NCBI GenBank assembly: GCA_036403515.1
Contig: DASWQV010000093.1
Location: 33,366 to 97,365, forward strand
Direction of reading: 5' to 3'
Length of the DNA stretch: 64,000 bases
DNA from: Solirubrobacterales bacterium
GTDB taxonomy: Bacteria; Actinomycetota; Thermoleophilia; Solirubrobacterales; 70-9
Shown: positions 3,673-59,783 of the stretch, in pieces
Layout of the letters: every line of letters starts with the position of its first letter
Position numbering within the stretch: the stretch's first letter is position 1
Made by a program: the position numbers and the translations under genes
Notes under the pieces: model-generated
The model's input: only the letters and a program-made list of their open reading frames with translations
Databases searched by the model: none
Told to the model about the DNA's origin: nothing

Positions 3673-5392
3673 GCTCGTAGCCGGGTGGGGGTTCGGGTAC
3701 CGCTCCCCGCTCAACTTTTTCGGTGGAGAGTTGCAGGCTGGCAGTTGGCGGATCGCCGAAAAAGTACAAGCCGCGGGGAACGGTACCCGAACCCCTTTCC
3801 AGGGACGCCATTGCTACGAGTAGGAGTGGGTAGAACCACACTATGTATAGGTAGAACCAGTGATGCATTGTCACCTGCACGCCGATCAGGAGGGCCGCGC
3901 CCAAGGCAGCCACTTGGAAGAGCTTCTTCTCCTTGGGGCGGAAGGCGAAGAGCAGGGCCAGGGCGGCGATCGCGATCCCGATCGCGATGCGCAAGGGCTC
4001 TAGCCAAGCTACCTGTCCCCAGATGCTGAATGGTGAATCTCTTCCCGCTTGGTAGGCGATCGTGCGGTCGTAGACCGTATGCAGGCCAGGATCTATCGCG
4101 GACCAGAGCAGCAGAGCGAACGCTGTGAGTGCAAAGCCGATCGCAAACTTCACTCCCGCGGGTGGCGCCGTAGGGGGAACCGCCCCTGAGGACGCTTTAG
4201 CGACCGGAAGGGGTGGTGGGTCCCCTGCGGCGACGGGACCCGCGGGCCTATACGTCGCGAGCATCGGAAGCAGTACCGCCGGTGCGAACTTTGCGAGTGT
4301 CGCCAGACCTGCCATCACCCCTCGCGCAAGGGGTCGTGCCAAGACCAGCAGTGTCGCAACCAGCAGCAGCGCCACCAGGGTGTCGTTCGAGTTGGAGAGC
4401 AGTGCGAACGCGGTGTAGGGGTATGCCGCCCAGCCGAAGGCGAGGGTCGCCGCGAGCTTGTTGCCCTCTGGCCCGGGGCGGATTCGGCGGCCCAGGAAGA
4501 TCAGGAGGGCGAAGGTGGCCAGATCGAAGAAGACCGCCGCGGCGTGGGCCGCCGGAAGGTCGCTCCAAGTGCCCGACCAGGGCCAGATCCGCTCGAAGGG
4601 CACGTAGGCGAAGTAGTTGACCGGGCCGTAGGTGTCACCTTGGGAGACGTCTTTGGGGAAGTTGCCGTAGATCGGTTCGCCGTGGGCGATTCGGTCGGCT
4701 CCGACCACGCCCGCGTAGCCGACGTCGATCGCGCCCGAGTCGGCCATGTTGAGCCCAACGCGAAAGCCAACCAGGAAGAGAGCGGCGACGAGCAGCCAGG
4801 CCGCGGGCCATGACGGTCGGATTCCCTCCCCTCTCCCCCGCAGCCCGATCCACAGCGCCCGGGCGAACAGGTAGACGAGCGGGACGTACTGGAGCGGCAC
4901 CGAGACACCGATTTCGGCTCGATTGAAGAAGAAGTTGGAGGCGCCGAAGCCGAGCAGGACGAGGAGGTCGAGGTTTGCGACCCGCCAGCGTCGGCGCCAG
5001 TCGATCAGGCCGAGCAGGAAGATCGCGCAGAGGGGCAGGAAGACGTAAGGGGCATTGAGCTTGTGGCCAAAAGCGCCGGAGTAACCCCGCGCCATCTTCC
5101 AAGCGACCTGGTAGCCGGTCCACGACTCGCGGACCAGCCCGCTGGTCGGATCGACGATGACCAGCGCGACCTCCTTGCCGTCGGCGAAATACGCGACCTC
5201 CCAATTGCCGTCGACCCTGCGCGCGCTGTGGGCCAGCTCACCATTCTCCTCGCGCTCCTTGGCGACGTTCTGGTCGTTGTCGGCCGCCCATGTGGCTTCG
5301 GTAGCTCCCACTTGCGCCCGGGCGGCGGCTGGCATTGCAAGCGCCACGAGGATCAGGATGGACAGCGCGACTGCTGCCCCTCGACCCCTCAT
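3665..5392 (-). CDS. polytopic membrane protein, GT-C-like glycosyltransferase (DUF2029-like) suspected
   Basis: Signal/TM N-terminus MRGRGAAVALSILILVAL and more than 10 hydrophobic helices. Start chosen at the internal ATG forming an ATGA overlap with the upstream gene stop (5389-5392). The last ~36 codons are encoded by repeat A1. Confidence 0.6.
   Translation of the reverse strand: MRGRGAAVALSILILVALAMPAAARAQVGATEATWAADNDQNVAKEREENGELAHSARRVDGNWEVAYFADGKEVALVIVDPTSGLVRESWTGYQVAWKMARGYSGAFGHKLNAPYVFLPLCAIFLLGLIDWRRRWRVANLDLLVLLGFGASNFFFNRAEIGVSVPLQYVPLVYLFARALWIGLRGRGEGIRPSWPAAWLLVAALFLVGFRVGLNMADSGAIDVGYAGVVGADRIAHGEPIYGNFPKDVSQGDTYGPVNYFAYVPFERIWPWSGTWSDLPAAHAAAVFFDLATFALLIFLGRRIRPGPEGNKLAATLAFGWAAYPYTAFALLSNSNDTLVALLLVATLLVLARPLARGVMAGLATLAKFAPAVLLPMLATYRPAGPVAAGDPPPLPVAKASSGAVPPTAPPAGVKFAIGFALTAFALLLWSAIDPGLHTVYDRTIAYQAGRDSPFSIWGQVAWLEPLRIAIGIAIAALALLFAFRPKEKKLFQVAALGAALLIGVQVTMHHWFYLYIVWFYPLLLVAMASLERGSGTVPRGLYFFGDPPTASLQLSTEKVERGAVPEPPPGYELR
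3687..3795. repeat. Family-A palindromic interspersed element, copy A1 (divergent)
   Basis: Outer arms GGGGTTCGGGTACCG (3687-3701) and CGGTACCCGAACCCC (3781-3795). Inner core AACTTTTTCGG ... CCGAAAAAGTACAAG is shared with copies A2-A4. Confidence 0.8.
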
Positions 5393-6942: not shown

Positions 6943-7057
6943 GAGCCAGCCCCGGGCAGGGGTTCCACTTAACTTTTTCGGTGCTGACGCAGCTGCTTGC
7001 GCCGCAGGCGGCCGCCGAAAAAGTACAAGACGTTCCACCCCTGCCCGGGGCTGGCTC
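6943..7057. repeat. Family-A palindromic interspersed element, copy A2
   Basis: GAGCCAGCCCCGGGCAGGGG-TTCCACTTAAC-TTTTTCGG ... CCGAAAAA-GTACAAGACGTTCCA-CCCCTGCCCGGGGCTGGCTC. The 20-bp outer arms are perfectly complementary. Confidence 0.85.
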
Positions 7058-12109: not shown

Positions 12110-12820
12110 CTAGCCGCGCGGTCGCTTCTTCGCCATGCCCGGCCGCCGCGGCAGGCCAGGGGGAGTCGAGCCGCGCTTGCGGATCAGGTGCAGGTGGCGA
12201 TGCTCGCTGCCCGCGGAGGGGCCGACGTGGAGGGTCTGCTCGGGGTGCATTGCCAGCTCTTCAGCGGCGTTGGCCAGTTGGCCCTCCTCGTCGGGATCGC
12301 GCTTGCCCTTCCAGGCGACCAGGAAACCGCCGTCGGCCAAGAGCGGCGAAGCCAGCTCAGCGAGGGTCGAGAGGCGGCCGACGGCGCGAGCGGTCACTGC
12401 CGCGTAGGTCTCGCGGGCATCGCCTTCGGCGACCTCCTCTGAGCGAGCGTTGACGACCCGGGCGTTGGCAATGCCAGCGGTGTCGATCGCCCGCTGGATG
12501 AATTCGCACTTGCGCCCAACCGACTCGATCAGATCAACCTGGGCGCTTGGCAGCGCAACGGCGAGTACGAGACCTGGAAACCCCGCTCCAGAGCCAATAT
12601 CAGCGATTTTCTCGGCCTTGGCCAGAACAGGGAATTCAAGCCCGGTGAGGCTGTCGGCAACGTGCACCCGCCAAGCCCGCTGCGGATCGGTAACGGAGCT
12701 GACCGACGCCTGCTCCACTTCCAAAAGCTCCAAGACAACCGAGATCGTCGCCCTCTGCGCCTCACTGAGGTGGCGGCCCGGCAGGGGTGGAGCGTCTTGT
12801 ACTTTTTCGCCTCTAGCCAT
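12110..12820 (-). CDS. rsmG: 16S rRNA (guanine527-N7)-methyltransferase RsmG
   Basis: SAM-binding DIGSGAGFPGL and conserved position next to parA. The ATG at 12820 lies in the loop of repeat A3, and the first ~17 codons are repeat-encoded. Confidence 0.85.
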   Translation of the reverse strand: MARGEKVQDAPPLPGRHLSEAQRATISVVLELLEVEQASVSSVTDPQRAWRVHVADSLTGLEFPVLAKAEKIADIGSGAGFPGLVLAVALPSAQVDLIESVGRKCEFIQRAIDTAGIANARVVNARSEEVAEGDARETYAAVTARAVGRLSTLAELASPLLADGGFLVAWKGKRDPDEEGQLANAAEELAMHPEQTLHVGPSAGSEHRHLHLIRKRGSTPPGLPRRPGMAKKRPRG

Positions 12821-12880
12821 CGTCCTAACCCCAGGCGCAACTCGAAAAAGTTAAGCGGAACCCCTGCCAGGCCGCCACCT
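12768..12880. repeat. Family-A palindromic interspersed element, copy A3
   Basis: AGGTGGCGGCCCGGCAGGGG-TGGAGCGTCTTGTAC-TTTTTCG ... CGAAAAA-GTTAAGCGGAAC-CCCTGCCAGGCCGCCACCT. It fills the jag-rsmG gap and overlaps the rsmG 5' end. Confidence 0.85.
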
Positions 12881-13363
12881 CTACTCAGAAACCAAAGGAG
12901 CGACGACCACGCACCGGTGCGGCTCGTCGCCTTCGCTGTAGGTCTCCACGCCGGCGCGATCCTTGAGGTGCTCGTGGACGACCCGCCGCTCCTGGGCGCT
13001 CATCGGATCCAGCTCGACGCTCTCGCTGCGGCTCAGCGCCTGCTCGGCCGCCCGATCGGCCCTTGCGGTCAGCGTTTCGCGGCGACGCTCCCGGTAGCCG
13101 GCAGCATCGACGACGACTCGCTTGCGCTCGCGCATCCCGCGGTACGCCGCCTGATAGGCGAGCAACTGCAGGGCATCGATCGTCTGTCCCCGCTTGCCGA
13201 TCAGCAACCCGTAGTCGTCGTCGCCCTCGACCGAAGCGGTGATGCGGTCGTCCTCCTCGCGAATCTCGACCTCCCCATCGAGGTCGAGCTCATCGAGAAC
13301 GCCCTCAACGATCTCCCGAACCCGCTCGGCGGGCTCCTGTGGCCAGTCGTCAGCTCCAGACAC
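12881..13363 (-). CDS. jag: Jag-like KH/R3H RNA-binding protein
   Basis: KH motif LLIGKRGQTIDALQ and R3H motif ERRVVHEHL. Start set at GTG 13363, because the upstream in-frame part of the ORF is repeat-B sequence. Confidence 0.75.
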   Translation of the reverse strand: MSGADDWPQEPAERVREIVEGVLDELDLDGEVEIREEDDRITASVEGDDDYGLLIGKRGQTIDALQLLAYQAAYRGMRERKRVVVDAAGYRERRRETLTARADRAAEQALSRSESVELDPMSAQERRVVHEHLKDRAGVETYSEGDEPHRCVVVAPLVSE

Positions 13364-15051: not shown

Positions 15052-15175
15052 TCGGCGTCGCAGTATACGGGCGGCGAAGGAAAGCTTCTCTGAAGAGGCC
15101 TCGCGGCAGGCTTTCTCCGCCATTTGCGGGGGAGCGGATGTCGCCCTCTCTTGCCGTCGCTATGGTCGCTCGCCG

Positions 15176-16504
15176 GTGCCCGATGACCATTCGAAAGAAG
15201 ATCTCGACTCCCTCTGGCGGGACGTCCAGGCCAGGCTGCGGGCAGCCTTGCCGTCGTCGACGTTCCAGCTCTGGCTGGAGCCGCTGACGGTCGTCGGCGC
15301 TCAGGCCGGTGTCCTCTACCTTGCCGCCCCGGCCGGCATCCGCGCCTGGACTGAGCGGCGCTATTCGGGTCTGATTCGAGAGGCGCTTGGCGGTGCAGGC
15401 TCAGACCTGGCTGACGTGCGCATCGGCGATGGCGACGACGTCGCCGGCTCCGAGAGAGAGTCCGCGCCAACCCTCGACCTCAACGTCAACTACACCTTTG
15501 AGCGATTCGTGATCGGGGAGGGAAACCGGATCGCCCACGCCGCGGCGTTGGCCGTGGCCGAGGCTCCCTCAGAGGCTTACAACCCGCTTTTCCTCCACGG
15601 CCCGCCGGGCCTCGGCAAGACCCACCTCCTCGTCGCAATCGCCAACTACCTGGCCGCCAACGCCCCCGGCCTGCAAGTCCGCTACACGACCGCCGAGCGC
15701 TTCACCAACGAGTTCGTCTCCGCGCTGCGGACGACCGGGGCGGAGGGCTTCAAGCGCCGCTACCGCGATCTCGACGTGCTGCTCGTCGACGACGTCCAGT
15801 TCCTCGAGGGCAAGCGCCACACCGAGGACGAGTTCTTCCATACCTTCAACGCTCTCTACGAAGGCGGCAGTCAGCTGGTCCTCTCCGCTGATCGCATTCC
15901 CAGCGAGCTCTCGAGTCTCGAGTCACGGCTGCGCGACCGCTTCGAGTGGGGCCTCACAGTCGCCGTCGAGCCGCCCAACCTCGCCACCCGCTTGACCGTC
16001 CTGCGCCGGCTCGTTCGCGAGGCCGGTGTCGACACCGAGAGCGACGTGCTCGACATCCTGGCGCGGCGAATCGACGCAAACGTGCGCCAATTGCACGGTG
16101 GGCTCACCCGGGTCCTCGCCCATGCCTCCCTGACCGCCAAGCCGCTCAGCCCCGAGCTGATCGAGGCGGTGATCCCCAAACGTACGAAGAGGGATGAGTC
16201 CACCCCGATCGAGGAAATCCAGCGGCGCGTCTCCGCCACCTTTGGCATCTCCAGGGCGGAGCTGGTCGGCTCGACCCGTTCAGCCACGCCGCTGCGAGCC
16301 CGGCAGGTGGCGATCTTTCTCACCCGCGAGCTGACCGATCTCTCACTGCCACAGATCGGCCGCCTCTATGGCGGCCGCGATCATTCCACCGTGCTCAACT
16401 CGATCAAGCGTGTCGAAGCTCGCTTCGACACCGACAAGGCCCTGGCCGGGCAGGTCGACGAGTTGCGCGCCGCAATCCACAGTGGGTCCACAGGCCCAGC
16501 CTGA
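15176..16504 (+). CDS. dnaA: chromosomal replication initiator protein DnaA
   Basis: AAA+ Walker A GPPGLGKTHL, Walker B LLVDDVQF and the C-terminal DnaA signature GGRDHSTV. GTG start. Confidence 0.95.
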   Translation: MPDDHSKEDLDSLWRDVQARLRAALPSSTFQLWLEPLTVVGAQAGVLYLAAPAGIRAWTERRYSGLIREALGGAGSDLADVRIGDGDDVAGSERESAPTLDLNVNYTFERFVIGEGNRIAHAAALAVAEAPSEAYNPLFLHGPPGLGKTHLLVAIANYLAANAPGLQVRYTTAERFTNEFVSALRTTGAEGFKRRYRDLDVLLVDDVQFLEGKRHTEDEFFHTFNALYEGGSQLVLSADRIPSELSSLESRLRDRFEWGLTVAVEPPNLATRLTVLRRLVREAGVDTESDVLDILARRIDANVRQLHGGLTRVLAHASLTAKPLSPELIEAVIPKRTKRDESTPIEEIQRRVSATFGISRAELVGSTRSATPLRARQVAIFLTRELTDLSLPQIGRLYGGRDHSTVLNSIKRVEARFDTDKALAGQVDELRAAIHSGSTGPA

Positions 16505-16554
16505 CGGCCGACGTCGTTGTAAGAATCAATGCTTTCCCACAGACCAATCCACAG
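16474..16554 (+). promoter_or_regulatory. cluster of four DnaA-box-like 9-mers (xxxTCCACA/CCCACA), candidate oriC/dnaN control element
   Basis: AATCCACAG (16474), GGTCCACAG (16485), TTCCCACAG (16534) and AATCCACAG (16546). All share one orientation, in two pairs spaced 11-12 bp, flanking the A/T-richer TTGTAAGAATCAATGCTTT. Confidence 0.45.
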
Positions 16555-16640
16555 CCACCCAAGCGCCGCGCAGAGCGGAGCCCGTATCCCTTTCGCGGTT
16601 TTCAACAAGCGCTAATCCAACTCAAGAAGGCAATCAACAC

Positions 16641-17747
16641 TTGAAGCTGACAACCAAACGCGACGAGCTTGTCGCCAAGCTCTCGATCGTCTCCCGCGCC
16701 GTATCGACGCGGACCGCCACCCAGGCTCTTTCCGGGATCCTCCTCACCGCGGATGAGGAGGGCGTCAGCCTCTGCGCAACCGATCTCGAGCTGGGCCTGA
16801 AGACAAAGCTGACGGCAGAGGTCGACAGTCCCGGCTCGGTCCTCCTGCCCGGCCGTCTCCTAGCCGAGGTTTCGCGCTCGCTCGGGGATCCGTCTGTCGA
16901 GGTCGAGCTGCGCGAGGCAGAGCGCGACGTCGAGATCCGCAGCGGCGGCTCGAGCTTCCACCTGCGCACCCTGCCCAGTGAGGACTTTCCCGCCCTCCCC
17001 GAGGATCAGGGCGAGCCACTGACGATCCCTGCCGCGGCGCTTGCCTCGACGGTGGATCTCGTCGCCCGCGCCGCTTCACGGGACGACATGCGGCCGGTTC
17101 TGACCGGCGTCCTGGTCAGCGCCAGCGGTTCGGAGATGACGATGGTCGCGACCGACTCCTACCGCCTCGCGGTCAAGCGAACCGAGTTGGAGAGCGCGAT
17201 CGGGGGCGAGCTGGAGGCGAACATCCCGGCCAAGGCGCTGCGCGAGCTGGGGCGCATCGTCTCGGCCGACGGTGTCGAGGCGGTCTCGGTCGCCTTGCTG
17301 CGCAATCAAGCCATCTTCAAGGCAGGGGGAATCGTCCTCAACACGAGGCTGATCGAGGGGCAGTTCCCCAACTTTCGACAGCTCCTTCCCGAGTCCTACG
17401 AGCACGATGTCCGCCTGCCCCGCGGCGAGTTCCTCGACGTCGTCCGCCGGGTCAGCCAGCTGGCGCAGCGCAACGCGCCGTTGCGGCTTTCTTTCGCGCC
17501 AGGCGAGCTGACGGTCGCCGCCTCGACTCCGGATGTCGGCGACGCGGAGGAGACGATGCCGGCGGCTTTTGAGGGAGAGCCGCTGGAGATCGGCTTCAAC
17601 CCCGACTTCCTGCGCGAGGGGATCGAAAGCGTCGAGGGGGATGAGGTTGTGCTGCGATTGATCTCACCGCTGCGCCCCGGTCTCCTGCAGCCGGTCGACA
17701 ACGAGAACTTCCGCTACCTGGTGATGCCGATCCGCCTCAACGTGTGA
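16641..17747 (+). CDS. dnaN: DNA polymerase III beta sliding clamp
   Basis: The TTG start gives the canonical (M)KLTTKRDEL N-terminus, with AAGAAGG Shine-Dalgarno 10 nt upstream. Three-domain clamp length (368 aa). Confidence 0.92.
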   Translation: MKLTTKRDELVAKLSIVSRAVSTRTATQALSGILLTADEEGVSLCATDLELGLKTKLTAEVDSPGSVLLPGRLLAEVSRSLGDPSVEVELREAERDVEIRSGGSSFHLRTLPSEDFPALPEDQGEPLTIPAAALASTVDLVARAASRDDMRPVLTGVLVSASGSEMTMVATDSYRLAVKRTELESAIGGELEANIPAKALRELGRIVSADGVEAVSVALLRNQAIFKAGGIVLNTRLIEGQFPNFRQLLPESYEHDVRLPRGEFLDVVRRVSQLAQRNAPLRLSFAPGELTVAASTPDVGDAEETMPAAFEGEPLEIGFNPDFLREGIESVEGDEVVLRLISPLRPGLLQPVDNENFRYLVMPIRLNV

Positions 17748-17757
17748 GGTTTGCCCG

Positions 17758-18849
17758 GTGCTCGTCACCGCCGCCGAAGCGAGACCGTTGCGGAGCCTGC
17801 CCCATCTGCGCATCGAGCCGGGGCCGGGGATCACCAGCTTGGTTGGTCCAAATGGAGTGGGCAAGACCAACTTCCTCGAGGCGCTGTACTTCGCCCTGAC
17901 CGGGCGTTCCTTCCGCACCGCCGACCGCCGCGACCTGATTCCTTTCGGCGACTCCTTTGCGAGGGCGGAAGCGACCGTGCGAGACGAGGATGGGGTGGAG
18001 CGACACCTGCTCGCCTCGGTGAGCCGCAGCGATGGGCGCCGCCATTTGCTCGACGCGAGTCCCGCGGACCCCGCCACACTGGCGCGCAGCCGTCCACCCG
18101 TCGCCGTTTTCTCGCCTGACCGCCTGAGCCTGATCAAGGGCCCGCCAGCGGAACGCCGCGCTCATCTGGACCGCTTCGTCGCCGCCCGTTGGCCGTTTCG
18201 AGCCGACCTGCGCCAACGCTTTGGGCAGGCATTGGCGCAACGCAATGCGCTTGTCGCCGCACTCGCCGGCGGTCGCGGCGCGCCGAGTCAGCTCGATGCA
18301 TGGGATGCCACCTTGGCCGAGGCCGCCGCCGCGCTCATCGCCGCCCGGGCCGAGGCCGCCGCGGAGCTGTCCGAGCCGTTCGCGGCTGCGTCCGTCGACC
18401 TCGGCTTGGAGGGCGGCGCCTCACTTTCGTACGCCCCCCGCGCGGAGGGCTCCAGCGCTGAAATCACGGCCGGGCTGTTCGAACGGCGGGAGGCCGACCT
18501 GCGCCTCGGCAGGACCTCCTGGGGCCCCCACCTCGACGAGCTCAAGGTCGACCTCGCGGGTCGCTCGCTGCGCCGCTACGGCTCCCAGGGCCAGCAGCGC
18601 TTGGCGCTCTTGGCCCTGCTCTTTGCCGAGCGTGAGGTGCTGCTCGCCGCGCGCCAGGTGGCGCCACTCCTGCTCCTCGATGACGTCATGAGCGAGCTTG
18701 ATCCGCCCCGCCGCCAGCGACTGGTCGACCGCCTTGCAGGAAGGGGTCAGACGCTGATCACCGCCGCCGCCGAGGACTCGCTGCCGGCCTCGGCGCTGAC
18801 AGGCGCCGTGCGAATGCCGTTCCTCGCGGACGCGTCGGCGGCGGCATGA
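17758..18849 (+). CDS. recF: DNA replication/repair protein RecF
   Basis: Walker A GPNGVGKTN, SMC-like signature SQGQQR and Walker B LLLDDV. Confidence 0.9.
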   Translation: MLVTAAEARPLRSLPHLRIEPGPGITSLVGPNGVGKTNFLEALYFALTGRSFRTADRRDLIPFGDSFARAEATVRDEDGVERHLLASVSRSDGRRHLLDASPADPATLARSRPPVAVFSPDRLSLIKGPPAERRAHLDRFVAARWPFRADLRQRFGQALAQRNALVAALAGGRGAPSQLDAWDATLAEAAAALIAARAEAAAELSEPFAAASVDLGLEGGASLSYAPRAEGSSAEITAGLFERREADLRLGRTSWGPHLDELKVDLAGRSLRRYGSQGQQRLALLALLFAEREVLLAARQVAPLLLLDDVMSELDPPRRQRLVDRLAGRGQTLITAAAEDSLPASALTGAVRMPFLADASAAA

Positions 18850-19151
18850 ACCGCCGCCGAGCTCCTCGCCCGGCTGCGACGGCCCTGCGCGCCGCGCTCG
18901 AGCAGGCGGCGCCTAAAACCCCCCTTGCGGCCCTGCAGGGAGCTTGGGCCGAGGTCGTCGGCGAGCGGATCGCGGCGGTCGCCAGCCCGGTATCCGAGCG
19001 CGGCGGAGAGGCGACTGTGAGCTGCTCGGATTCCGTCTGGGCCCAGGAGTTGGATCTGATGCAAGGTCAGTTGCTGGAGCGCTTGCACGAGCGCCTCGGC
19101 GAGCGTGCCCCGCAGAGTTTGCGATTCCGTGCGGAAGATGCCCGAAAGTAA
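18846..19151 (+). CDS. DUF721 (DciA-like) protein
   Basis: The W..VVGE.IA..., ...V.C.DSVWAQEL pattern at the conserved recF-gyrB position. Confidence 0.8.
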   Translation: MNRRRAPRPAATALRAALEQAAPKTPLAALQGAWAEVVGERIAAVASPVSERGGEATVSCSDSVWAQELDLMQGQLLERLHERLGERAPQSLRFRAEDARK

Positions 19152-19244
19152 TTTCATTTTACGGCGATTTGCAGGACTTTTATTTCCCCAAAACGAGTCG
19201 ACAAAAGCCCCGAACTGGTATCCTTATGTCAACTTGCATTTCCG

Positions 19245-19286
19245 CCCCGACCGTGCGCCGCAAGTGTCCGACGGTCGGGGTTTTCT
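19245..19286 (+). terminator. intrinsic terminator-like hairpin
   Basis: CCCCGACCGT (19245-19254) pairs with ACGGTCGGGG (19271-19280) and is followed by TTTTCT. It lies 22 nt upstream of the gyrB start. Confidence 0.6.
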
Positions 19287-19307
19287 ATGAGAACGGGAAG
19301 GGACTAA

Positions 19308-21734
<2,427 letters not shown>

Positions 21735-21767
21735 CCCAGGGCGATCGCCCGGAAAGCGGGGGATCTA

Positions 21768-24275
<2,508 letters not shown>

Positions 24276-24285
24276 GGGTCGGCGG

Positions 24286-24396
24286 GGAGGGTCTTCCCGG
24301 TTCCCAAGCACCGCCAACTGGCGGTGCTAATCATGAGCCCTTCGGGGCCTAGAACCCCTCTGCGGAGCCGCTTCGCGAGGAACCGGGAAGACCTCC
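24286..24396. repeat. Family-B structured interspersed element, copy B2 (inverted relative to B1)
   Basis: Closing stem GGAGGGTCTTCCCGGTT / AACCGGGAAGACCTCC. It encloses AGCACCGCCAACTGGCGGTGCT, GCCCTTCGGGGC and GGAGCCGCTTCGCGAGG. Confidence 0.8.
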
Positions 24397-24610
24397 TCCA
24401 CCGACCTCTCGACCACCCGCTCACTTGCCTAGAAGCTGGCGCCCGGGAGCCCAACGTGATCGTGAACGCGTGCTTGGAACAGCGGCGTTCGCATTTCGGC
24501 GAGGCTGGGAAGCTTTTCCGGTCGAGCCGCTCGGGGATCGATTTGCAGCCGAAAAGCTTGGCGGCTCAAGGAAGGACAAGCTTGATCCTGACGAGGCGGT
24601 AGATAGGGCA

Positions 24611-24709
24611 GCGGGGAGGTCTCGACGGATCCTCGCGGAGCGGCAGCTAATTAGCACCGCCTTTTGGGCGGTGCTTGGGAACCGGCGAGACCTCCCCGCT
24701 GTCCTCCCC
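24611..24709. repeat. Family-B element, copy B3 (internally deleted)
   Basis: Perfect 14-bp closing stem GCGGGGAGGTCTCG (24611-24624) / CGAGACCTCCCCGC (24686-24699) around CCTCGCGGAGCGGC...AGCACCGCCTTTTGGGCGGTGCT. It lacks the central ~37 nt present in B1. Confidence 0.75.
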
Positions 24710-25466: not shown

Positions 25467-25889
25467 ATGGCCGTCTTCTACGCGGACACGTCCGCGCTGG
25501 TCAAGCTCGTTCGCGAGGAGGCCGAGTCGTCTGCCCTGCGGGCCTATTTCGCAGACGCAGACCTGGTTAGCAGCGAGTTGGTCCTGGCCGAGCTTCCTCG
25601 GGCGGTGCGTCGTGCGGTCGCAGACGACCCGGCTTTGCCGCTCGACCTGTTGCTTGATCGCGCTGGGGAATTGATCGACGCCCTCGCCCTGCGTCCGGCC
25701 GATCAGGCTTTGCTGGCTGGGGCAGGAGCGCTCACCGAGCCGGCACTTCGAGCACTTGACGCAATTCACGTCGCCTCCGCCGCTGGCCTTGGCCCCTTCG
25801 AGGCCTTTGTGACCTATGACGAACGCCAGGCAGCCGCCGCCAGGCTCGCCGGTCTTCGCACGGTAGCTCCGGGCGCAGCCACCCGCTAA
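25467..25889 (+). CDS. vapC: type II toxin VapC (PIN domain RNase)
   Basis: FYADTSALVKL (first acidic residue), SELVLAEL, ALDAIHVASA and the FVTYDERQ PIN signature. Confidence 0.85.
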   Translation: MAVFYADTSALVKLVREEAESSALRAYFADADLVSSELVLAELPRAVRRAVADDPALPLDLLLDRAGELIDALALRPADQALLAGAGALTEPALRALDAIHVASAAGLGPFEAFVTYDERQAAAARLAGLRTVAPGAATR

Positions 25890-26392
25890 GCAGCAGCCGG
25901 AAGGTACTGCTGCCAGTTTTCGGGAATCTTCGGGCTGGCCACCTGGATGAACACCGTCGGCCCGGGCGCCTTCGGGGTGCTCTGCGGATGCATGTGGATC
26001 TCGCGGGGGAGCCGGTTGCCCTTGCGCCGGTTGCAGGACGCGCAGGCGGCGACGATGTTCTCCCAGACCGATTTGCCGCCGCGGCTGCGGGGGATGACGT
26101 GATCGACCGTGAGGCCGGATTTGCGGGAACCGCAGTATTGGCAGGTCCAGGAGTCGCGGGCGAGGACCGCCCGGCGGGTGATCTTGCGGCGGTGCGCTTC
26201 GCGGGGGATCCGCACGTAGCTGACCAGGCGGATCACGTCGGGGCGCTCCATCGTCATGTGCTCGGAGTGGATCGCGCCCTCGCGGCGCTCCAGCAGCTCG
26301 GCCTTTTCCTTCAGCAAGAGCACAGCGGCCCTCCTCAACGTGCAGACGTTGATCGGCTCATACGTTGCGTTGAGTACGAGCACACGTGCCAT
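25886..26392 (-). CDS. HNH endonuclease (conserved actinobacterial type)
   Basis: CQYCG...DHVIPRSRGG...WENIVAACASCNRRKGN HNH/zinc-finger motif. Confidence 0.85.
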   Translation of the reverse strand: MARVLVLNATYEPINVCTLRRAAVLLLKEKAELLERREGAIHSEHMTMERPDVIRLVSYVRIPREAHRRKITRRAVLARDSWTCQYCGSRKSGLTVDHVIPRSRGGKSVWENIVAACASCNRRKGNRLPREIHMHPQSTPKAPGPTVFIQVASPKIPENWQQYLPAAA

Positions 26393-45831: not shown

Positions 45832-46327
45832 GGCCTGGGCCGCGCTGGTCTTCGCCCTCCTGGTCTTCGCCACGCTCGCCGCCTTCGCCTGGTCGCAGCG
45901 CCTGAAGCGCGATCCCCTCGTCCTCGACCGGGTCACCTTCGTTTCACGCTGGCAATCTCCGCGCCCAGGCGCAAAGCCCGTAACCGCCCGAGCCTTCACT
46001 CCCAATCGCGATTGTCTCTTCGACCGTGAGCGGATTCGATTCCGTGTCACCCAGTCGGATCACGCGACGGTGCAGGTCGTCAAGCCTGGCGGCAGGCTGA
46101 TCGTCACCCTCGCCCGTGACCAGTACCTGAAGCGCTATCACTTCTTCACCTTTTACTGGGATGGCCGCAGCCGCAACGACGGCAGCGCGGCGCCGGGCCG
46201 TTACAAGCTGCGGGTAAAGCTGTGGGATCAGGAACGGACGCTGGTTCCACCGGGCACGATCAAGCTGCACCACGCCAGGCGCAGCCCCGGGCACTGTCAG
46301 TCAAGAGTAGCCGGGAGCAAAGGTTGA
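45812..46327 (+). CDS. hypothetical membrane-anchored protein with Ig-like (FlgD-Ig-like) domain
   Basis: N-terminal TM, then a beta-rich segment ...WDGRSRNDGSAAPGRYKLRV typical of FlgD-Ig-like folds. Tentative. Confidence 0.45.
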   Translation: MPRPRGEAWAALVFALLVFATLAAFAWSQRLKRDPLVLDRVTFVSRWQSPRPGAKPVTARAFTPNRDCLFDRERIRFRVTQSDHATVQVVKPGGRLIVTLARDQYLKRYHFFTFYWDGRSRNDGSAAPGRYKLRVKLWDQERTLVPPGTIKLHHARRSPGHCQSRVAGSKG

Positions 46328-47958
46328 GCGACCTGCTTGCCGGTGCCGGTGTGGTGATCGCCGCCACAGCTGCCGCCGCTGTGATCCTGCTCCCAGCCGG
46401 CCGGATTCGATCGCTGGCAATGCTGATCGCGCTCGTTCTCTTTCCCGTCCTGATCCTCGGTGACCAATGGCACTCACACCAGATCGCCGACCTGCGGCAT
46501 CACACGCCGAGGTTGATCGCGCTGGGCGCCCTCGGCGTCACTGCGGCAGTGGCGCTCGCATACGCCTTCAAGCGCTGGCCGATCCTCTTGCCCCTGGCGA
46601 TCGTCGCCGCGCTGCCTTTTCGGGTGCCTTTGCATGCTGGGGGTGACACCGCGAACCTGCTGGTGCCGCTTTACCTGGTGATCGGCGGCGGGGTCCTCTC
46701 TGTGGCGTTTGGTGAGTGGCAGCAGCGTGGGGGGGTCGATCCGGGGGCTGGGTTTTTCGCCGGGCGCAGATCGCCTCTCGCTGAGTGGTCTCTGCGAAAA
46801 ACGGGACGCCGCCCCCGGATCGACCCCCCCACGCTGCTGCCATACGTCCTTGCCGGGTTCGTCCTTCTGTACGCGTTGCAGGCGCTTTATTCGCCTGATT
46901 TCTCCAAGGGTCTGCAGAACGTTTGTTTCTTCTTCGTGCCGTTCTCTCTGGTGTATGGGTTGCTTCGGGATGTCAGCTGGGACGGGAAGCTTCTTACCTT
47001 GGTCCTCTGGGTGGTTGGAGTGGAGGCGGTTTGCTTTGTCGTCGTCGGTTCGGTCGAGTGGGGGACTCGCAGCCTCTTCTGGAACGACCAGGTGATCCGA
47101 TCGAATGAATTCCACACTTATTTCCGAGTCAACTCGGTGTTTTGGGATCCGAATATCTACGGTCGCTACCTGGCGCTGGTTGCCGTGGTGGCGATGAGTG
47201 CGCTGTTGTGGGCGCGAGAGCGCAAATCGCTGATCTTGCTCTCGGCTCTGGTTTTCGTGCTCTGGCTTGGGCTGTTCCCGACCTTCTCGCAGTCGAGCTT
47301 CGCTGCGCTTCTCGCAGGGCTGGCCGTGCTCGCCGCTCTGAAGTGGAGCCTGCGCTGGACCCTAGTCGCGGTGGGAGCCTTTGCCGTTCTCGGCGTCCTC
47401 GTGGTCTTGTTCACAGGCGGGAGAGCCAGCTTGGATCGCATCAACATCGACACCAGCGGCAGAGCGAACCTCGTCTCCGGCGGCATCCACCTCTTCGCCC
47501 AGCGCCCGATCTACGGCTACGGATCGGGAAGCTTCCCCAAGGCCTACCGCGAGCACGTGGAGACTCACAAGGCTCCCGTCTCGGTCTCGCACACCGAGCC
47601 AATAACCGTTGCTGCCGAGCAGGGGCTCCTCGGCGTGGCCGCCTACATAGCTCTGGCCCTGACAGCCCTGTGGACGATGGCCGTCGGCTTGCGTCCCTCG
47701 CTGCTCTCCCTATCCGTGGCTCGCGTGGGTGGCGTGGGGGGAGGGGGGTCGAGGACGGATCGTGGCCCGCCCGCAGGCCCCCCTCCCCCCGCGACAGGAC
47801 CCGCGCGCCTGCAACCCATGGCCCGAGTGGCGATCCTCGCCACCTTCACAGCCCTAATCGTCCACACGATGGCCTACGCAGGCTTCTTCGAGGACCCGAT
47901 CACCTGGGTCCTGCTCGCCGCGGGCGTATCGCTGGCGGCCGCCAATCGGCCGGGCTAG
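46324..47958 (+). CDS. O-antigen ligase/polymerase-like (Wzy_C) membrane protein
   Basis: More than 10 TMs and a Wzy_C-like loop (GRANLVSGGIHLFAQRPIYGYGSGSF...HTEP). The TTG start overlaps the upstream stop (TTGA). Carries two in-frame palindromic inserts. Confidence 0.7.
   Translation: MSDLLAGAGVVIAATAAAAVILLPAGRIRSLAMLIALVLFPVLILGDQWHSHQIADLRHHTPRLIALGALGVTAAVALAYAFKRWPILLPLAIVAALPFRVPLHAGGDTANLLVPLYLVIGGGVLSVAFGEWQQRGGVDPGAGFFAGRRSPLAEWSLRKTGRRPRIDPPTLLPYVLAGFVLLYALQALYSPDFSKGLQNVCFFFVPFSLVYGLLRDVSWDGKLLTLVLWVVGVEAVCFVVVGSVEWGTRSLFWNDQVIRSNEFHTYFRVNSVFWDPNIYGRYLALVAVVAMSALLWARERKSLILLSALVFVLWLGLFPTFSQSSFAALLAGLAVLAALKWSLRWTLVAVGAFAVLGVLVVLFTGGRASLDRINIDTSGRANLVSGGIHLFAQRPIYGYGSGSFPKAYREHVETHKAPVSVSHTEPITVAAEQGLLGVAAYIALALTALWTMAVGLRPSLLSLSVARVGGVGGGGSRTDRGPPAGPPPPATGPARLQPMARVAILATFTALIVHTMAYAGFFEDPITWVLLAAGVSLAAANRPG
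46718..46841. repeat. Family-A-like palindromic element, copy A5, inside the Wzy-like CDS
   Basis: Perfect 31-bp inverted arms GGCAGCAGCGTGGGGGGGTCGATCCGGGGGC (46718-46748 and 46811-46841), with the inner TTTTTCG ... CGAAAAA core. Confidence 0.85.
47736..47790. repeat. G/C-tract inverted repeat inside the Wzy-like CDS
   Basis: GGGGGGAGGGGGG (47736-47748) and CCCCCCTCCCCCC (47778-47790), with a 29-nt spacer. Encodes the low-complexity segment GGVGGGGSRTDRGPPAGPPPPATGP. Confidence 0.8.
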
Positions 47959-47967
47959 GGTCAGCGC

Positions 47968-49509
47968 GTGTCGGGATACCTCCGCCGCCTAGCGACGACC
48001 GGCGCCGCCTACACGGCGGCGAGCATCGTCTCGAAGCTGATCGCCGTCGCGCTGCTGCCGCTCTACACGCGCTACCTGACCCCAGCGGACTACGGCGCCG
48101 CCGAGGTTATGTTCGCCGCGATCATCACCGCCAGCATCGTCGTCCGCCTCGGCACGATCGAGGCGCTGCTGCGCTTCTATTACAAGGACGGTGAGGACCC
48201 GGCCCGCGTCGTCGCCACCTCCTTCGCGGCCCTGTTCTGGCTCGCGACCGTCGCGACGCTGGTCTTGCTGCCCTTCGCGGAACCGATCTCCGAACTGCTG
48301 CTCAACCGCCCCGCCCCGGACCTGGGCAGAATCGCGATCGGCGGCCTCTGGGTCTCGACCATGTTCGAGTACCTGCTCACGCTCTTCCGCCTCGAGGAGC
48401 GCGCCCGCGCCTTCTTCGTGACGACGATGCTCAGCGTGCTCTCGGCGATCGGGCTGACCGTCGTGCTCGTGGTCGGGGCGGGGGAGGGCGCCCGCGGGCT
48501 GCTGCTCGGCAGCTACATCAGCGGCGCCGCCTTTGTCCTCGGCTTGATCTGGGTCCATCGCCGCCGCCTCTCGCTGCGCTTCGAACGACCTCTCCTGCGC
48601 CGCCTGATGCGCTTCGGCCTGCCGACGATGCCCGCCGAGCTCTCGCTCTACGGACTCAACTTCGTCGACCGGATCATCATCGTCCACGCGGCCGGCCTCC
48701 CTCAGGCGGGCCTCTACTCGCTCGGGGTCAAGTTCGCCCAAGGCGTCAACGTCCTCGTTCGGGGCTTCCAGCTCGCCTGGCCGCCACTCGCGTACTCGAT
48801 CCGCGATGACGGCGAGGCCCGCCGCACCTACGCCCTCGTGGTCACCCTCTTCGTCGCCGGCTGCTCCTTCGTCGTCACCGGCATGTGGCTGCTCTCGCGC
48901 TGGCTCGTCCGCGCCCTCGCCGCGCCCGAGTTCTTCGGCTCCTACAAGGTGATCGGACTGATCGCCACCGCGGTCACCCTCTACGCCCTCTACATGGTCC
49001 TCGTCGTGATCCTCGGCAGAACGGGCCGCACCGAGTTCAACTTCCCCGCCGCCGCCGCCGCCCTCGCCACCAACGTCGCCCTCAACCTCGCCCTCGTCCC
49101 CCCGCTCGGCATCGTCGGGGCCGGCATCGCCCTCGTCGCCTCCTACCTGGTCGTGCTCGCCTTGATGTACGGCTTCACCCAGCGCCTCTTCCCCCTTCCC
49201 TACGAATGGGGCCGCCTCGCCCGCGTGGTCGCGGTCAGCGCAGGAATTGTCGGCCTGGGAGAGCTTCTCCTGCCAACCGAGGGCTTTCTCGGCCTCCTAT
49301 CCCGCACGGCTCTCTGGCTCACCTACCCACTCGCCCTGCTCGCAACGGGCTTCTTCACCTCCGGCGAGCGCCGCTGGCTCGCCCGTCTGCGCCAACCAGG
49401 CGTCCTGACTGCCCAGCTGCGATCGCTGCGTCCAGCGGCAGCAGGCGTCGACGGGTCAGTCCCCGAGACCTACGAGGCAGAGCAAATGGACGAGGACGCG
49501 CGCCCGTGA
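47968..49509 (+). CDS. polysaccharide/oligosaccharide flippase (Wzx, MOP superfamily)
   Basis: About 14 TMs and the N-terminal SIVSKLIAVALLPLYTRYLTPADYG motif typical of Polysacc_synt proteins. GTG start. Confidence 0.8.
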   Translation: MSGYLRRLATTGAAYTAASIVSKLIAVALLPLYTRYLTPADYGAAEVMFAAIITASIVVRLGTIEALLRFYYKDGEDPARVVATSFAALFWLATVATLVLLPFAEPISELLLNRPAPDLGRIAIGGLWVSTMFEYLLTLFRLEERARAFFVTTMLSVLSAIGLTVVLVVGAGEGARGLLLGSYISGAAFVLGLIWVHRRRLSLRFERPLLRRLMRFGLPTMPAELSLYGLNFVDRIIIVHAAGLPQAGLYSLGVKFAQGVNVLVRGFQLAWPPLAYSIRDDGEARRTYALVVTLFVAGCSFVVTGMWLLSRWLVRALAAPEFFGSYKVIGLIATAVTLYALYMVLVVILGRTGRTEFNFPAAAAALATNVALNLALVPPLGIVGAGIALVASYLVVLALMYGFTQRLFPLPYEWGRLARVVAVSAGIVGLGELLLPTEGFLGLLSRTALWLTYPLALLATGFFTSGERRWLARLRQPGVLTAQLRSLRPAAAGVDGSVPETYEAEQMDEDARP

Positions 49510-49510
49510 C

Positions 49511-49622
49511 AGGACGATCCCGGTAGGGGTGGAACGTCTTGTACTTTTCGGCGCGCGCAACGGGCGGCAGCAGCCGCCGCCGCACCGAAAAAGTTAAGTG
49601 GAACCCCTACCGGGATCGTCCT
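49511..49622. repeat. Family-A palindromic interspersed element, copy A4
   Basis: AGGACGATCCCGGTAGGGG-TGGAACGTCTTGTAC-TTTTCGG ... CCGAAAAA-GTTAAGTGGAAC-CCCTACCGGGATCGTCCT. The 19-bp outer arms are perfect. It sits between convergent genes and supplies the GT2 stop region. Confidence 0.9.
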
Positions 49623-50544
49623 GCGCCCCGACCCGGTCCCGAATACTTTCGCCCCGCCTCGGAAAGAGCGCTTGCCGGGCGTGAGCCCGGTAGACCTTCG
49701 CGGGCTGGCCGGGGAGGACCGCCGCCGCCAGAGCGCGCACGGCGTAGGACCAGGCAGTGAGTAGCCGCACCAGCAGCGCTGCGGTCCGGCCGTGGTGCTT
49801 GCGCATGTAGAGGTCGCGGTTGCGGTGGAATTCGACGATCCGAGGCAGCCCCTCGGCCAGGTCGGTGGAGAGCTGGTCATGGTGGGTCGCCGCGGCCGCG
49901 GGGACGAAAAGGCCGTGCCAGCCGGCCTCAGCGAGGCGCTTGGCGAAGTCGCACTCGTCGTAGTAGACGAAGAACTCGGGGTCCATGTAGCTGACTTCGG
50001 TGGCGGCCTCGCGGCGGACCAAGAGGGCGCTCGACTGCGCCCAGTCGACCTGCCGGGTGGCCGGTCCCCTGCTCTGCACGGTCAGCCAACGGTGCAGGAA
50101 GAGCGCGCCCGCCAGGGCGGCGCCGACGCCGGGAAAGCGCCAGGCGCAGGCCACCGGAGCGCCGCTGGAATCGAGCAGCCGGGGCGTCGCCACGGCGGCC
50201 CTGGGGTCTGCGTCAAGCGCCTCGACCAGCGCCCCCGCAGCCCCCGGCCGCAGCTCCGAGTCCTCGTTGAGCAGCAGGCAGTAACGGCCGCTCGCCTCGC
50301 GCATCAGGGTCGAGTCGTTCTCCGCCTTTCCCGTCCGGCGCTCGAGCGCGATCAGGCGAATCTCGCCGCCGAGATCGCGCACCGCCTCGGCGGAGCCGTC
50401 GGTTGAGGCGTTGTCCACGACGAGGATCTCCCGCTCGATCCGCTCCGGGTGGGTGCGCTCAATCGCCGCAAGGCAAGCGAGTAGATACTCGCGGCCATTC
50501 GTGTTCACAACGCAGTAGGAGAGCGTGGGCGCCACCGGGGTCAC
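49594..50544 (-). CDS. glycosyltransferase family 2
   Basis: SYCVVNTNGREYL..., VVDNASTDGS and LNEDSE (DxD-like). The last ~9 codons and the stop lie in repeat A4. Confidence 0.85.
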   Translation of the reverse strand: MTPVAPTLSYCVVNTNGREYLLACLAAIERTHPERIEREILVVDNASTDGSAEAVRDLGGEIRLIALERRTGKAENDSTLMREASGRYCLLLNEDSELRPGAAGALVEALDADPRAAVATPRLLDSSGAPVACAWRFPGVGAALAGALFLHRWLTVQSRGPATRQVDWAQSSALLVRREAATEVSYMDPEFFVYYDECDFAKRLAEAGWHGLFVPAAAATHHDQLSTDLAEGLPRIVEFHRNRDLYMRKHHGRTAALLVRLLTAWSYAVRALAAAVLPGQPAKVYRAHARQALFPRRGESIRDRVGAQDDPGRGST

Positions 50545-59097: not shown

Positions 59098-59102
59098 CCC
59101 GC

Positions 59103-59783
59103 TCACTCCCTGCCGGTGACGCGCCGCATCTCGTTCTCGGCCTCTTCGGGACCGAGGTAAGGCATCAGCACGGCGAAGACCAGGTCGGGAAGGATCCGCT
59201 TCAGTTCTGGGCCTCGCCCAGCACGGATCTCGTCGAAGATCATCGAGGTGGCGCCGCCGATCGCAAAGCGCGCCGTATCCGCCGGCAGCTCCTCGCCCTG
59301 AGTGGAGTACTCGCGACCCTCCTCGAGAAACGGCGTGAAGCGCGCCAGCGCGGCCCGGTAACGCGCCCGAGCGTCGTCGCCGGCAGCCGTGACCTCGACC
59401 ATCGAAAGGCGGGCGATGTCGGCCTCGACGGCGAGCAGTTCGACCAGGGCGCGCAGGCCGGCCGCGATCCGCTCCGGCCAGGGCTCGCTCGCGGCTGACT
59501 CGAAGGCTGCCGTGACATGGGCGACGAGGACGTCGAAGACCGCGTCGTAGGCCTCGAGGAAGCAGGTCGGCTTATCGCCGAACATCTCCTCGAAGGCCTC
59601 GCGGGAGACACCCGCCACCTCGATCACATCGGTCACCGTGGTGGCCTCGTAGCCCTTCGCCGCGGCGACCCGCAGCATCGCCTCCAGCAAGCGCTCGCGC
59701 TGGGAGCGGACCAGGTAGGCACGCGGCAAGCCGTGGCGTCCACCAGGGACTCTTTCTGGATTCGAAGTAGATGGCGAATCCAC
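59103..59783 (-). CDS. TetR-family regulator, paralog 1
   Basis: GGRHGLPRAYLVRSQRERLLEA...GYEATTVTDVIEVAGVSREAFEEMF and the C-terminal LPDLVFAVLMPYLGPEEA motif. GTG 59783 chosen to avoid overlap with paralog 2. Confidence 0.8.
   Translation of the reverse strand: MDSPSTSNPERVPGGRHGLPRAYLVRSQRERLLEAMLRVAAAKGYEATTVTDVIEVAGVSREAFEEMFGDKPTCFLEAYDAVFDVLVAHVTAAFESAASEPWPERIAAGLRALVELLAVEADIARLSMVEVTAAGDDARARYRAALARFTPFLEEGREYSTQGEELPADTARFAIGGATSMIFDEIRAGRGPELKRILPDLVFAVLMPYLGPEEAENEMRRVTGRE

Follow-up and report, generated by a model that had tools for sequence, protein, structure and literature searches.

The stretch of 64,000 nucleotides from a Solirubrobacterales bacterium analysed here (contig DASWQV010000093.1; in the following, the window) covers the chromosomal origin region together with cell-division and cell-envelope gene clusters, and holds five copies (A1 to A5) of an interspersed palindromic element termed Family A. 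Each copy is a single long interrupted hairpin of about 110–120 bp, in which an invariant, asymmetric core of about 45 nt adjoins an outer stem that is free in sequence and kept paired. A preliminary description of this DNA, made from the letters alone, had proposed a maintained hairpin with a conserved interior, either a REP-like or miniature inverted-repeat transposable element (MITE)-like repeat or a structured RNA. This was supported by covariation, by the existence of a large lineage-confined family, and by sites that are filled in some genomes and empty in others.

Structure and covariation of Family A

The spaced motif TTTTTCG-N20-50-CGAAAAA occurs four times in the window and in none of 100 dinucleotide-preserving shuffles. 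A covariance model, R1, was built from 122 aligned copies (the alignment labelled A1) and gave 97–118 bits for the copies A1 to A4, placing A3 and A4 on the plus strand and A1 and A2 on the minus strand. For A5 the score was 44.3 bits, with the minus strand slightly ahead. All five copies lie within 1 nt of the places named in the preliminary description, and the orientations it gave were the same. Beyond A1 to A5, the R1 scan of the 64-kb window detected no other copy of Family A; the weak scorers at 24.3 kb, 24.6 kb and 8.05 kb are hairpins of other families. Within each copy the outer arms are nearly perfectly complementary, as had been claimed (95–100% over 21–23 nt in A1 to A4; Table 1 for A5), and the predicted RNA fold of A4 has about −83 kcal/mol on either strand, with a z score of about −8.9.

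The anatomy was read from the 122 aligned copies on the strand in which the TTGTAC arm comes first. The outer stem measures 19–21 bp (5th–95th percentile 14–25). The core reads GRA-R-CGT-CTT-G-TAC on its 5′ side and GT-T-AAG-Y-GRA on its 3′ side, and is followed inwards by the inner stem TTTTTCG/CGAAAAA and by an apical part of about 35 nt without predicted consensus pairing. Within the core, CTT pairs with AAG, AC pairs with GT, and R and Y form a covarying pair (G-C in 63 copies, A-T in 51). Unpaired are a 3×3 purine loop, mostly GGA/GGA with some GAA/GAA or mixed forms, a CGT bulge and a G bulge/T.T. Variation is greatest at the termini (columns 11–18 of the alignment), and the mid-stem core does not vary. 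A reading of the core as a kink-turn or sarcin-ricin motif was rejected by inspection, the G.A-type mismatches being on the wrong side of the bulge.

These results modify some of the earlier claims. The outer arms had been called copy-specific; they do differ between copies, yet they are diverged versions of one family consensus, ..GCCNATCCCGGTAGGGG, and not of unrelated origin. The interior is conserved and asymmetric as described, whereas its supposed lack of complementarity is contradicted in part by the CTT/AAG, AC/GT and R-Y pairs. The direct GTGGAAC repeat is incidental to the A-T variant, since A3 has GTGGAGC and GCGGAAC at these positions.

Compensatory differences between the arms, noted before for single copies, extend through the whole outer stem. 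All 20 of its 20 pairs have changed on both sides among the 122 copies, and 94% of its cells are paired. For the structure as a whole, 96.3% of cells are paired, as against 39–58% when the 3′ partner is slid by one to three columns, and there are 848 double-change cells as against 140–251 with slid partners; none of 500 shuffles reached the observed values. The inner stem is fixed by the search pattern used to collect copies (see below), and its covariation was therefore read from copies found by the model or by orthology. Among such copies outside the pattern set, the compensatory variants TTTTTGG/CCAAAAA, TTTTTCTG/CAGAAAAA, TTTTTTG/CAAAAAA and TTTTCGG/CCGAAAA were present.

Three subtypes were distinguished. 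Type I, ..CCGGTAGGGG-TGGARCGTC.., includes A2, A3 and A4, and type II, ..CCGCTCCCCGCGGC.. / GTTGAGCGGGGAG.., includes A1. Type III, GGCGTCC-N-TTTTTCG .. CGAAAAA-YCCCAGC, is represented by A5 and by copies at L002:3870, L037:944 and L023:5919, the L-numbers denoting other loci that were compared with the window. The coordinates of the copies and of the parts of A4 are collected in Table 1.

Table 1. Family A copies in the window and the component parts of copy A4.
Feature	Position	Strand	Remarks
Copy A1, type II, outer stem ..CCGTTCCCCGCGGC / GTTGAGCGGGGAGCGG..	3688..3795	-	97.2 bits
Copy A2, type I	6943..7057	-	118.2 bits
Copy A3, type I, G-C variant of the R-Y pair	12767..12881	+	105.4 bits
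Copy A5, type III, GGCGTCC-N-TTTTTCG .. CGAAAAA-CCCAGC	46717..46842	-	44.3 bits; arms 37 nt, 95% complementary
Copy A4, type I, whole hairpin	49510..49623	+	111.9 bits
A4 outer stem, 5′ arm CAGGACGATCCCGGTAGGGGT	49510..49530	+	21 nt, 100% complementary to 49603–49623; covariation
A4 core, 5′ side: GGA purine loop, A (pairs with T49599), CGT bulge, CTT (pairs with AAG), G bulge, TAC	49531..49544	+	
A4 inner A/T-rich stem, 5′ side TTTTCGG	49545..49551	+	pairs with 49585–49592
A4 apical region, G+C-rich, sequence unconstrained	49552..49584	+	from loop identities; no predicted consensus pairing
A4 inner stem, 3′ side CCGAAAAA	49585..49592	+	
A4 core, 3′ side: GT, T, AAG, T (pairs with A49534), GGA purine loop	49593..49602	+	
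A4 outer stem, 3′ arm ACCCCTACCGGGATCGTCCTG	49603..49623	+	

Distribution, gain and loss, and conservation in place

One genome per species was scanned with the pattern TTGTACTTTTTCG-N20-50-CGAAAAAGT, and the element was found in at least 117 stretches from at least 73 species-level metagenome-assembled genomes (MAGs). This search of other genomes, like the covariation test above, had been foreseen in the preliminary description. Among the matches listed, nearly all MAG labels were Solirubrobacterales or Thermoleophilia, many with chromosomes of 2.5–3 Mb. No viral contig matched the pattern, and an origin from phages was rejected on this basis. R1 recovered about 11 further copies in the same loci that the pattern had missed. 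With the bait copies excluded there were about 15 extra copies in 0.9 Mb, and the window has five in 64 kb; from these densities the number of copies per genome is roughly estimated at tens to low hundreds. At the gathering thresholds of Rfam 15 only a tRNA was found in the window, and at E < 10 copy A4 gave chance hairpins only, with 23 bits or less against cut-offs of 50–200. Membership in any described Rfam family was dropped accordingly, and no paper on interspersed repeats of Solirubrobacterales was found in the literature.

The exact core pattern used to find copies inflates core conservation in the resulting set. This bias was countered by a series of orthologues chosen by protein homology and by the copies that only the model detected.

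When the 500-bp flanks of every copy were compared with all loci, more than 20 groups of orthologous sites were obtained, the groups being unrelated to each other among the at least 117 loci. Several sites exist in both states. The site filled in L029 and L034 is empty in L103 and in the window itself (59098–59103), the one filled in L020 and L107 is empty in L007, that of L025 is empty in L098, that of L019 is empty in L009, L058 and L072, and the site of A2 is empty in L095. Filled and empty versions differ by the element alone and not by a gene plus the element. At the sites between convergent genes (L029/L034, L020/L107, L025) the empty version has 0–5 nt between the stop codons or overlapping stops, at the A4 site it has 0–5 nt between the convergent stops, and at the A2 and L019 sites it is without a hairpin. 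The entire hairpin, including the outer stem, thus came with the element. Insertion into a pre-existing terminator hairpin was rejected, as the empty sites lack a hairpin, the stem length is fixed at 19–21 bp and the stems follow the family consensus. Presence and absence at orthologous sites, together with dispersal to unrelated sites, are the general marks of a mobile repeat, and Family A displays both.

The A4 site was followed through nine genomes picked by homologues of the Wzy-like protein that are 67–81% identical to the protein in the window. The site is occupied in six of the nine and empty in L120 and L126. The remaining locus, L123, has between the stop codons (7088–7114) a short GC-rich hairpin, GGGCCCCAGG-CGGTG-CCCTGGGCC, which is unrelated to Family A. 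In L124 (7203–7337), one of the six, the element is reversed and its outer stem resembles that of L118, which would be explained if the arms had recombined and inverted it in place, or if a separate insertion had hit this position. All six occupied sites have identical GGGGTGGAACGTCTTGTACTTTT and AAAAAGTTAAGTGGAACCCC, with the core GGA-R-CGT-CTT-G-TAC-TTTTT / AAAAA-GT-T-AAG-Y-GGA, whereas the apical parts cannot be aligned.

The same contrast was seen in 28 orthologous pairs from the pattern-derived set, where identity was 82% in the flanks, 68% in the outer stems, 61% in the loops and 88–90% in the core segments outside the pattern. The loop value compares with 60% for non-orthologous pairs and 55% for shuffled loops. 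In orthologues, then, the stems drift yet stay paired and the loop is free. Because the core is identical in orthologues whose loops are unalignable, it must be under purifying selection or another homogenising force in place. Copies persist for long periods, and derivatives with internal deletions retain the outer stem (L042:1273–1350; L120, in the Wzy gene). Correction of one arm from the other within the hairpin, known as quasipalindrome correction, is possible. If such templated correction operates, the unpaired core must be actively selected, since it would otherwise be erased. Stems evolving faster than loops, as a sign of purely templated correction, were looked for and not seen.

At two loci, L092 (2054–2178) and L108 (6063–6174), a shorter hairpin occupies the position where L016 and L062 hold a type II copy. 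It has the same kind of outer stem (..CGGGTGGCCCTCCC) around the interior AAAAC-GAGCGGC..GCCGCTC-TTGAGTG-TTTT, which suggests either an exchange of interiors with the stem retained or the existence of a related family. Short partial right-arm fragments adjoin full copies at L107:4843–4870 and in L018 near 7190 (GGTTAAGCGGAACCCCCGC; AAAGTTAAGTG) and are possibly remnants of tandem or nested insertions.

Copy A5 lies inside a gene. Its 126 nt form 42 codons, in frame, that encode residues 166–207 of an open reading frame (ORF) for a Wzy_C O-antigen-ligase-like protein (46222–47958, plus strand), and the codon-position GC signal continues on either side. The peptide, WQQRGGVDPGAGFFAGRRSPLAEWSLRKTGRRPRIDPPTLLP, in which GFFA derives from TTTTTCG and RKTG from CGAAAAA, is kept in most homologues down to 72% identity, and two closer homologues (P0052 and P0065) have different internal deletions within it; the insertion is therefore old. 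In orthologous copies, 35-bp arms are kept through double substitutions that alter the protein, such as GCGTG/CACGC to GCGAG/CTCGC and GTCGATCCGGG/CCCGGATCGAC to GTCAATCTGGG/CCCAGATTGAC. A5 is thus not a decayed copy of Family A; it is a third subtype, situated in coding sequence. Its hairpin has −65 kcal/mol with DNA parameters, and such a structure in the middle of a gene is hard to reconcile with an RNA function and suggests that the hairpin is maintained as DNA or that its arms undergo templated correction. The same Wzy_C protein has a second in-frame indel of about 40 residues (..RPSLLSLSVARVGGVGGGGSRTDRGPPAGPPPPATGPARLQP..; window about 47700–47810) that is variably present among homologues. 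It coincides with the inverted repeat GGGGGGAGGGGGG/CCCCCCTCCCCCC (hairpin arms 47730–47748 and 47778–47796) and is probably another translated palindromic insert.

Placement at gene ends and the nature of the element

Neighbouring genes were called heuristically, as long ORFs with a high-GC3 (G+C at third codon positions) signature. With every element turned to its own orientation, 84 right-hand neighbours converge on it and 31 do not (p = 8e-7), whereas left-hand neighbours have no orientation bias (53:61). Among 125 contexts, 50 were tandem, 38 convergent and 16 divergent. Where the element is co-directional with its surroundings, the mRNA carries the reverse complement in 39 cases and the forward strand in 11 (p = 9e-5). 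The stop codon lies between −5 and +10 nt from the hairpin end in 44 of the 84 converging right-hand genes and in 20 of the 53 left-hand genes, and the hairpin end often has one or two nucleotides in common with TAG or TGA. The element had been described as interspersed. It is dispersed indeed, but its copies are not randomly scattered; they adjoin stop codons with an orientation that is biased relative to the upstream gene. A bias relative to replication, judged by GC skew, was weak (51 against 74, p = 0.05) and uninformative, because the skew follows the gene strand in this lineage.

In the window, A4 begins one base past the TGA of a Polysacc_synt flippase gene (47968–49509, plus strand) and overlaps the end of a GT2 glycosyltransferase gene on the opposite strand (49594–50544, minus), whose TAA stop is contained in the conserved CTTAAC, that is, in the TTA of the conserved GTTAAG. 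A3 is flanked by jag/KhpB (12881–13603, minus), the stop codon of which touches the element, and by rsmG (12110 to about 12770, minus); in a jag/rsmG mRNA, A3 would be present as the reverse complement of its TTGTAC-first strand. Orthologous copies of A3 are present in L041 and L095 and absent from L060. A2 occupies a divergent intergenic region between a phosphodiesterase gene (5389–6915, minus) and an aminotransferase gene (7169–8914, plus). A1 lies next to a YmdB-like gene (2899–3672, plus) and is read through by a membrane-protein ORF (3665–5443, minus), which takes about 43 C-terminal codons, with the tail ..LYFFG..TEKVERG.., from the element. The copy orthologous to A1 in L102 has compensatory stem changes.

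Such a placement would be expected of a cis-acting host RNA at gene 3′ ends, that is, a factor-dependent (bidirectional) terminator, a 3′-end protector or a processing site of the ribonuclease III (RNase III) type. In this reading the hairpin would be transcribed together with the upstream gene, an RNA-binding protein would bind the core, and dispersal would be a by-product. The closeness of the hairpin to stop codons, the right-hand convergence and co-directional bias, the predominance of convergent (38 of 125) and tandem (50 of 125) gene pairs and the invariance of the core in orthologous copies all fit such a role. The minimal substrate of RNase III is about 20 bp, the same size as the Family A outer stem. 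A canonical Rho-independent terminator was rejected, as no U or T tract follows the hairpin in either orientation or on either strand, and the runs of T and A are internal to the hairpin, where they pair with each other. The missing tract tells against the wider 3′-end role as well, and so do copies within apparent operons (jag-rsmG; L019, between the stop codon and the next ribosome-binding site), the 16 copies in divergent promoter regions and the maintenance of the A5 hairpin inside coding sequence.

The rare wobble-type cells bear on the same question. In the fixed alignment columns 13–30, G.T-type cells are rare and on the TTGTAC-first strand outnumber A.C by 63 to 30 (p = 8e-4), the cells not being phylogenetically independent as orthologues share ancestry. 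The ratio on the TTGTAC-first strand is 23:6 in contexts whose mRNA corresponds to the other strand, so that the tolerated G.T is on the non-mRNA strand in most contexts, and G.U pairs are no commoner than other mismatches; both observations speak against a 3′-end RNA. Weighing these points, a 3′-end RNA appears a serious but rather unlikely explanation.

With RNA parameters, the TTGTAC-first strand is on average 2.7 kcal/mol more stable and is favoured in 84 copies against 35, and it also holds the purine-rich loop and the G.U-type wobbles. These features would suit independently transcribed small RNA genes whose RNA is the TTGTAC-first strand. Since the flanks are unrelated between copies, neither the element nor its surroundings contain a conserved sequence resembling a promoter or a terminator; moreover, the space between the stop codons is taken up by the element, A5 is within coding sequence, and Rfam gave no match even at E < 10. 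Small RNA genes are consequently regarded as very improbable.

An integron-like cassette system, in which the element would be an attC-like folded single-strand recombination site 3′ of each gene cassette, was also considered. In attC sites the R′ consensus is GTTRRRY and R′′ is RYYYAAC. Family A recalls such sites in its conserved structure, where the stems are free in sequence, the unpaired bases fixed and the apical part variable, in the match of GTTAAGY to R′, in its preferred orientation directly after or overlapping a stop codon, and in that the wobble-tolerant strand is the non-coding strand of the upstream gene. GTTAAGY is, however, placed mid-stem, with 20 more paired base pairs outside it, and not at the hairpin base, and its partner is CTTGTAC rather than RYYYAAC. 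The neighbours of the copies are housekeeping genes whose synteny is conserved (jag, rsmG, ymdB-like, wzx-like), both orientations occur in the window, no tyrosine recombinase or integrase was found among the 59 window ORFs scanned, and filled and empty sites do not differ by a cassette gene. The context has already largely refuted this reading, which is hardly credible.

In our view Family A is probably a lineage-specific non-autonomous palindromic repeat, comparable to REPIN, ERIC and TRIT, with its partner encoded elsewhere and its core as a putative protein-recognition site. The core would be kept by purifying selection in place because a trans-acting protein recognises it on a folded single strand. 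The strand read would most likely be the TTGTAC-first one, as it carries the purine loop and tolerates G.T. The putative protein, encoded elsewhere in the genome, may be its mobilising enzyme, in the manner of the HUH/Y1 enzymes of REPINs, or may use the element at gene ends. The complementarity of the arms may in part be kept by hairpin-templated correction, besides selection. Maintenance at the DNA level is what the nearly exclusive Watson-Crick pairing, the wobble on the usually non-mRNA strand, the hairpin in coding sequence, the inversion at one site and the palindrome-type deletions point to, whereas stop-codon placement, orientation bias relative to the upstream gene and conservation in place point to RNA and gene expression.

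A number of observations weigh against a non-autonomous mobile repeat. A purely selfish element does not explain an invariant core in old orthologous copies, and the stop-codon position and the 39:11 co-directional bias are explained no less well by a host role in gene expression. No two copies in one genome are alike, and there is thus no sign of recent transposition. Direct repeats of 2–5 nt at or outside the hairpin ends were not above the shuffled expectation, and thus no target-site duplication was found. The strand preference is fragile, as one column alone gives 20 of the G.T cells, without which the ratio is 43:30 (p = 0.16) among cells that are not independent, and under DNA parameters the stabilities of the two strands do not differ meaningfully. 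A search of the loci for half-copies or an autonomous version gave one truncated copy (L082), no half-copy flanking a gene and no autonomous version. No transposase, integrase, tyrosine recombinase or Y1_Tnp was detected by a Pfam scan of the 59 window ORFs, and E. coli RayT gave nothing by tblastn in the window and about 1 Mb around some 135 copies (best E = 0.42). Finally, two insertion sequences (ISs) that might have served as partners, an IS1595-like IS in L013 (about 1576–2577) and a DDE_Tnp_1_4 (IS4-like) IS in L103 (about 4097–5754), each lie between two inverted Family A copies, but their own inverted repeats are unrelated to Family A and they are co-tenants.

The absence of a transposase or RAYT-like gene from the window had already been remarked in the preliminary description, and the Pfam and RayT searches bear it out. 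No RAYT or IS200-like partner was found in the window and the loci of about 1 Mb, and no IS200/IS605 TnpA or TnpB was seen in the loci examined. IS200/IS605-derived PATEs have subterminal hairpins at both ends; Family A is a single hairpin. Target-site duplication was absent from the comparisons of filled with empty sites too, though the species compared have diverged, and a TA duplication at the stop codons was looked for and not found. It seems that mobile DNA in general tends to land in the intergenic sites occupied by Family A. L013 has, at 1548–1599, an additional solo inverted-repeat junction of its IS1595-family IS.

Still another reading is that the core docks an undescribed factor acting on folded nucleic acid at gene ends, either as part of a factor-dependent system that forms or processes 3′ ends in Actinomycetota without U-tract terminators, on the TRIT-like principle, or as the site of a new hairpin-specific enzyme that places elements at stop codons without target duplication. 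This is judged improbable.

Relation to known palindromic repeats

The closest analogue in behaviour, going by its published description, is TRIT ('tuberculosis Rho-independent terminator') of Mycobacterium. It also belongs to the Actinomycetota, has many copies and is narrowly placed at stop codons, although it differs in being restricted to Mycobacterium. TRIT is palindromic and bidirectional, conserved in sequence and structure, and present in about 147 copies per genome; its position is narrow near the stop codon (around −8) and it lacks a canonical U tail, and a binding factor was inferred by its authors (Gardner et al. 2011, PMC3152330). Their proposal of a terminator that needs a double-stranded-RNA-binding factor favours the 3′-end role considered above for Family A (PMC3152330). 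The terminator role of TRIT was not borne out by Term-seq, in which overlap with mapped 3′ ends was minimal (bioRxiv 10.1101/2022.06.01.494293), and this counts against the 3′-end role.

REPINs resemble Family A as extragenic hairpins of about 100 nt with imperfect stems that cause no duplication of the target, are inherited vertically over long periods and are read as folded single strands. They differ in that RAYT genes are typically flanked by REPs, and none was found by about 135 Family A copies. The GTAG of REPs is present in the CCGGTAGGGG of Family A, yet there it lies in the paired stem and varies (GCAG, GGAG), and the arms are not short palindromes and thus form no REP doublet. Family A, as one hairpin, is not a REP unit, which is a palindrome of 20–40 nt with a 5′ GTAG in an inverted doublet.

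ERIC elements of enterobacteria (also IRU) have occasional intragenic copies, a copy number that varies widely and locations that vary between species, and they are described as MITE-like with a TA duplication. Family A is like them in these distributional features and in size, palindromic form and intergenic setting, but has no sequence similarity to them, no duplication, and termini that are the most variable part around an invariant mid-stem core. Imperfect palindromes of about 127 bp, ERICs are transcribed intergenic elements that affect the fate of the mRNA according to orientation (PMC10969869). Rickettsia palindromic elements (RPEs) are repeats of about 100–150 bp that can lie in frame in genes and be retained as peptide segments (PMC10969869). 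A5, with its 42 codons, behaves in this way, as does the second insert in the Wzy_C protein; of the five window copies, however, only one is intragenic and the rest are at stop codons, and RPEs come from an unrelated lineage and show no similarity in sequence to Family A.

Family A, with variable termini and no duplication, differs from Correia elements, in which the terminal inverted repeats are conserved and which have a TA duplication and a site for IHF. These elements of Neisseria (CREE/NEMIS) are inverted repeats of about 100–155 bp that are co-transcribed and form RNA hairpins cut by RNase III (PMC10969869). A MITE derived from a DDE IS was rejected too, given that the termini are most variable, the ends of the L013 and L103 ISs are unrelated and no target-site duplication is found. 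The defining features tested, those of MITEs with terminal inverted repeats and target-site duplication, of REP doublets, of attC sites and of canonical terminators, are absent from Family A, and it is therefore a new addition to the bacterial interspersed palindromic repeats, outside any named family.

Other hairpins were observed in the window. A second repeat family of the same architecture, Family B, is present at 24277–24406, 24605–24705 and 13389–13528, with complementary outer stems that have diverged between copies and a conserved, asymmetric interior (CCCAAGCACCGCC-N4-5-GGCGGTGCTAAT.A and CTCGCGAAGCGGCTCCGC). Family B hairpins follow gyrA, after which come a PIN-domain ORF (25467–25889, plus) and a stand-alone HNH endonuclease ORF (25886–26392, minus). 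An inverted repeat at 8052–8121, in the coding sequence of the aminotransferase (7169–8914), has 24-nt arms that are 83% complementary and was scored by R1 as a generic hairpin (21 bits). The origin region (10338–24275) comprises a tRNA (10338–10411, minus), parB, parA, rsmG, jag, yidC, rnpA, dnaA (15176–16504), dnaN, recF, gyrB and gyrA. The plus-strand GC skew flips at about 12–14 kb, with C in excess of G on the sense strand; leading strands usually have an excess of G, and the skew in the window is reversed.

Solirubrobacterales are abundant, uncultured soil Actinomycetota, and Family A makes in them a natural data set of more than 100 copies with orthologous series and filled and empty sites. 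The invariant core of about 45 nt is separable from the pairing-only stems and the free loop, which makes the putative binding partner approachable by pull-down with the folded core. In-frame peptide inserts and altered C-termini arise from the elements, and gene calling in these MAGs will be misled by them. Beside TRIT, this is a second actinobacterial case of conserved palindromes at stop codons, of interest for how gene ends are defined where canonical terminators are scarce.

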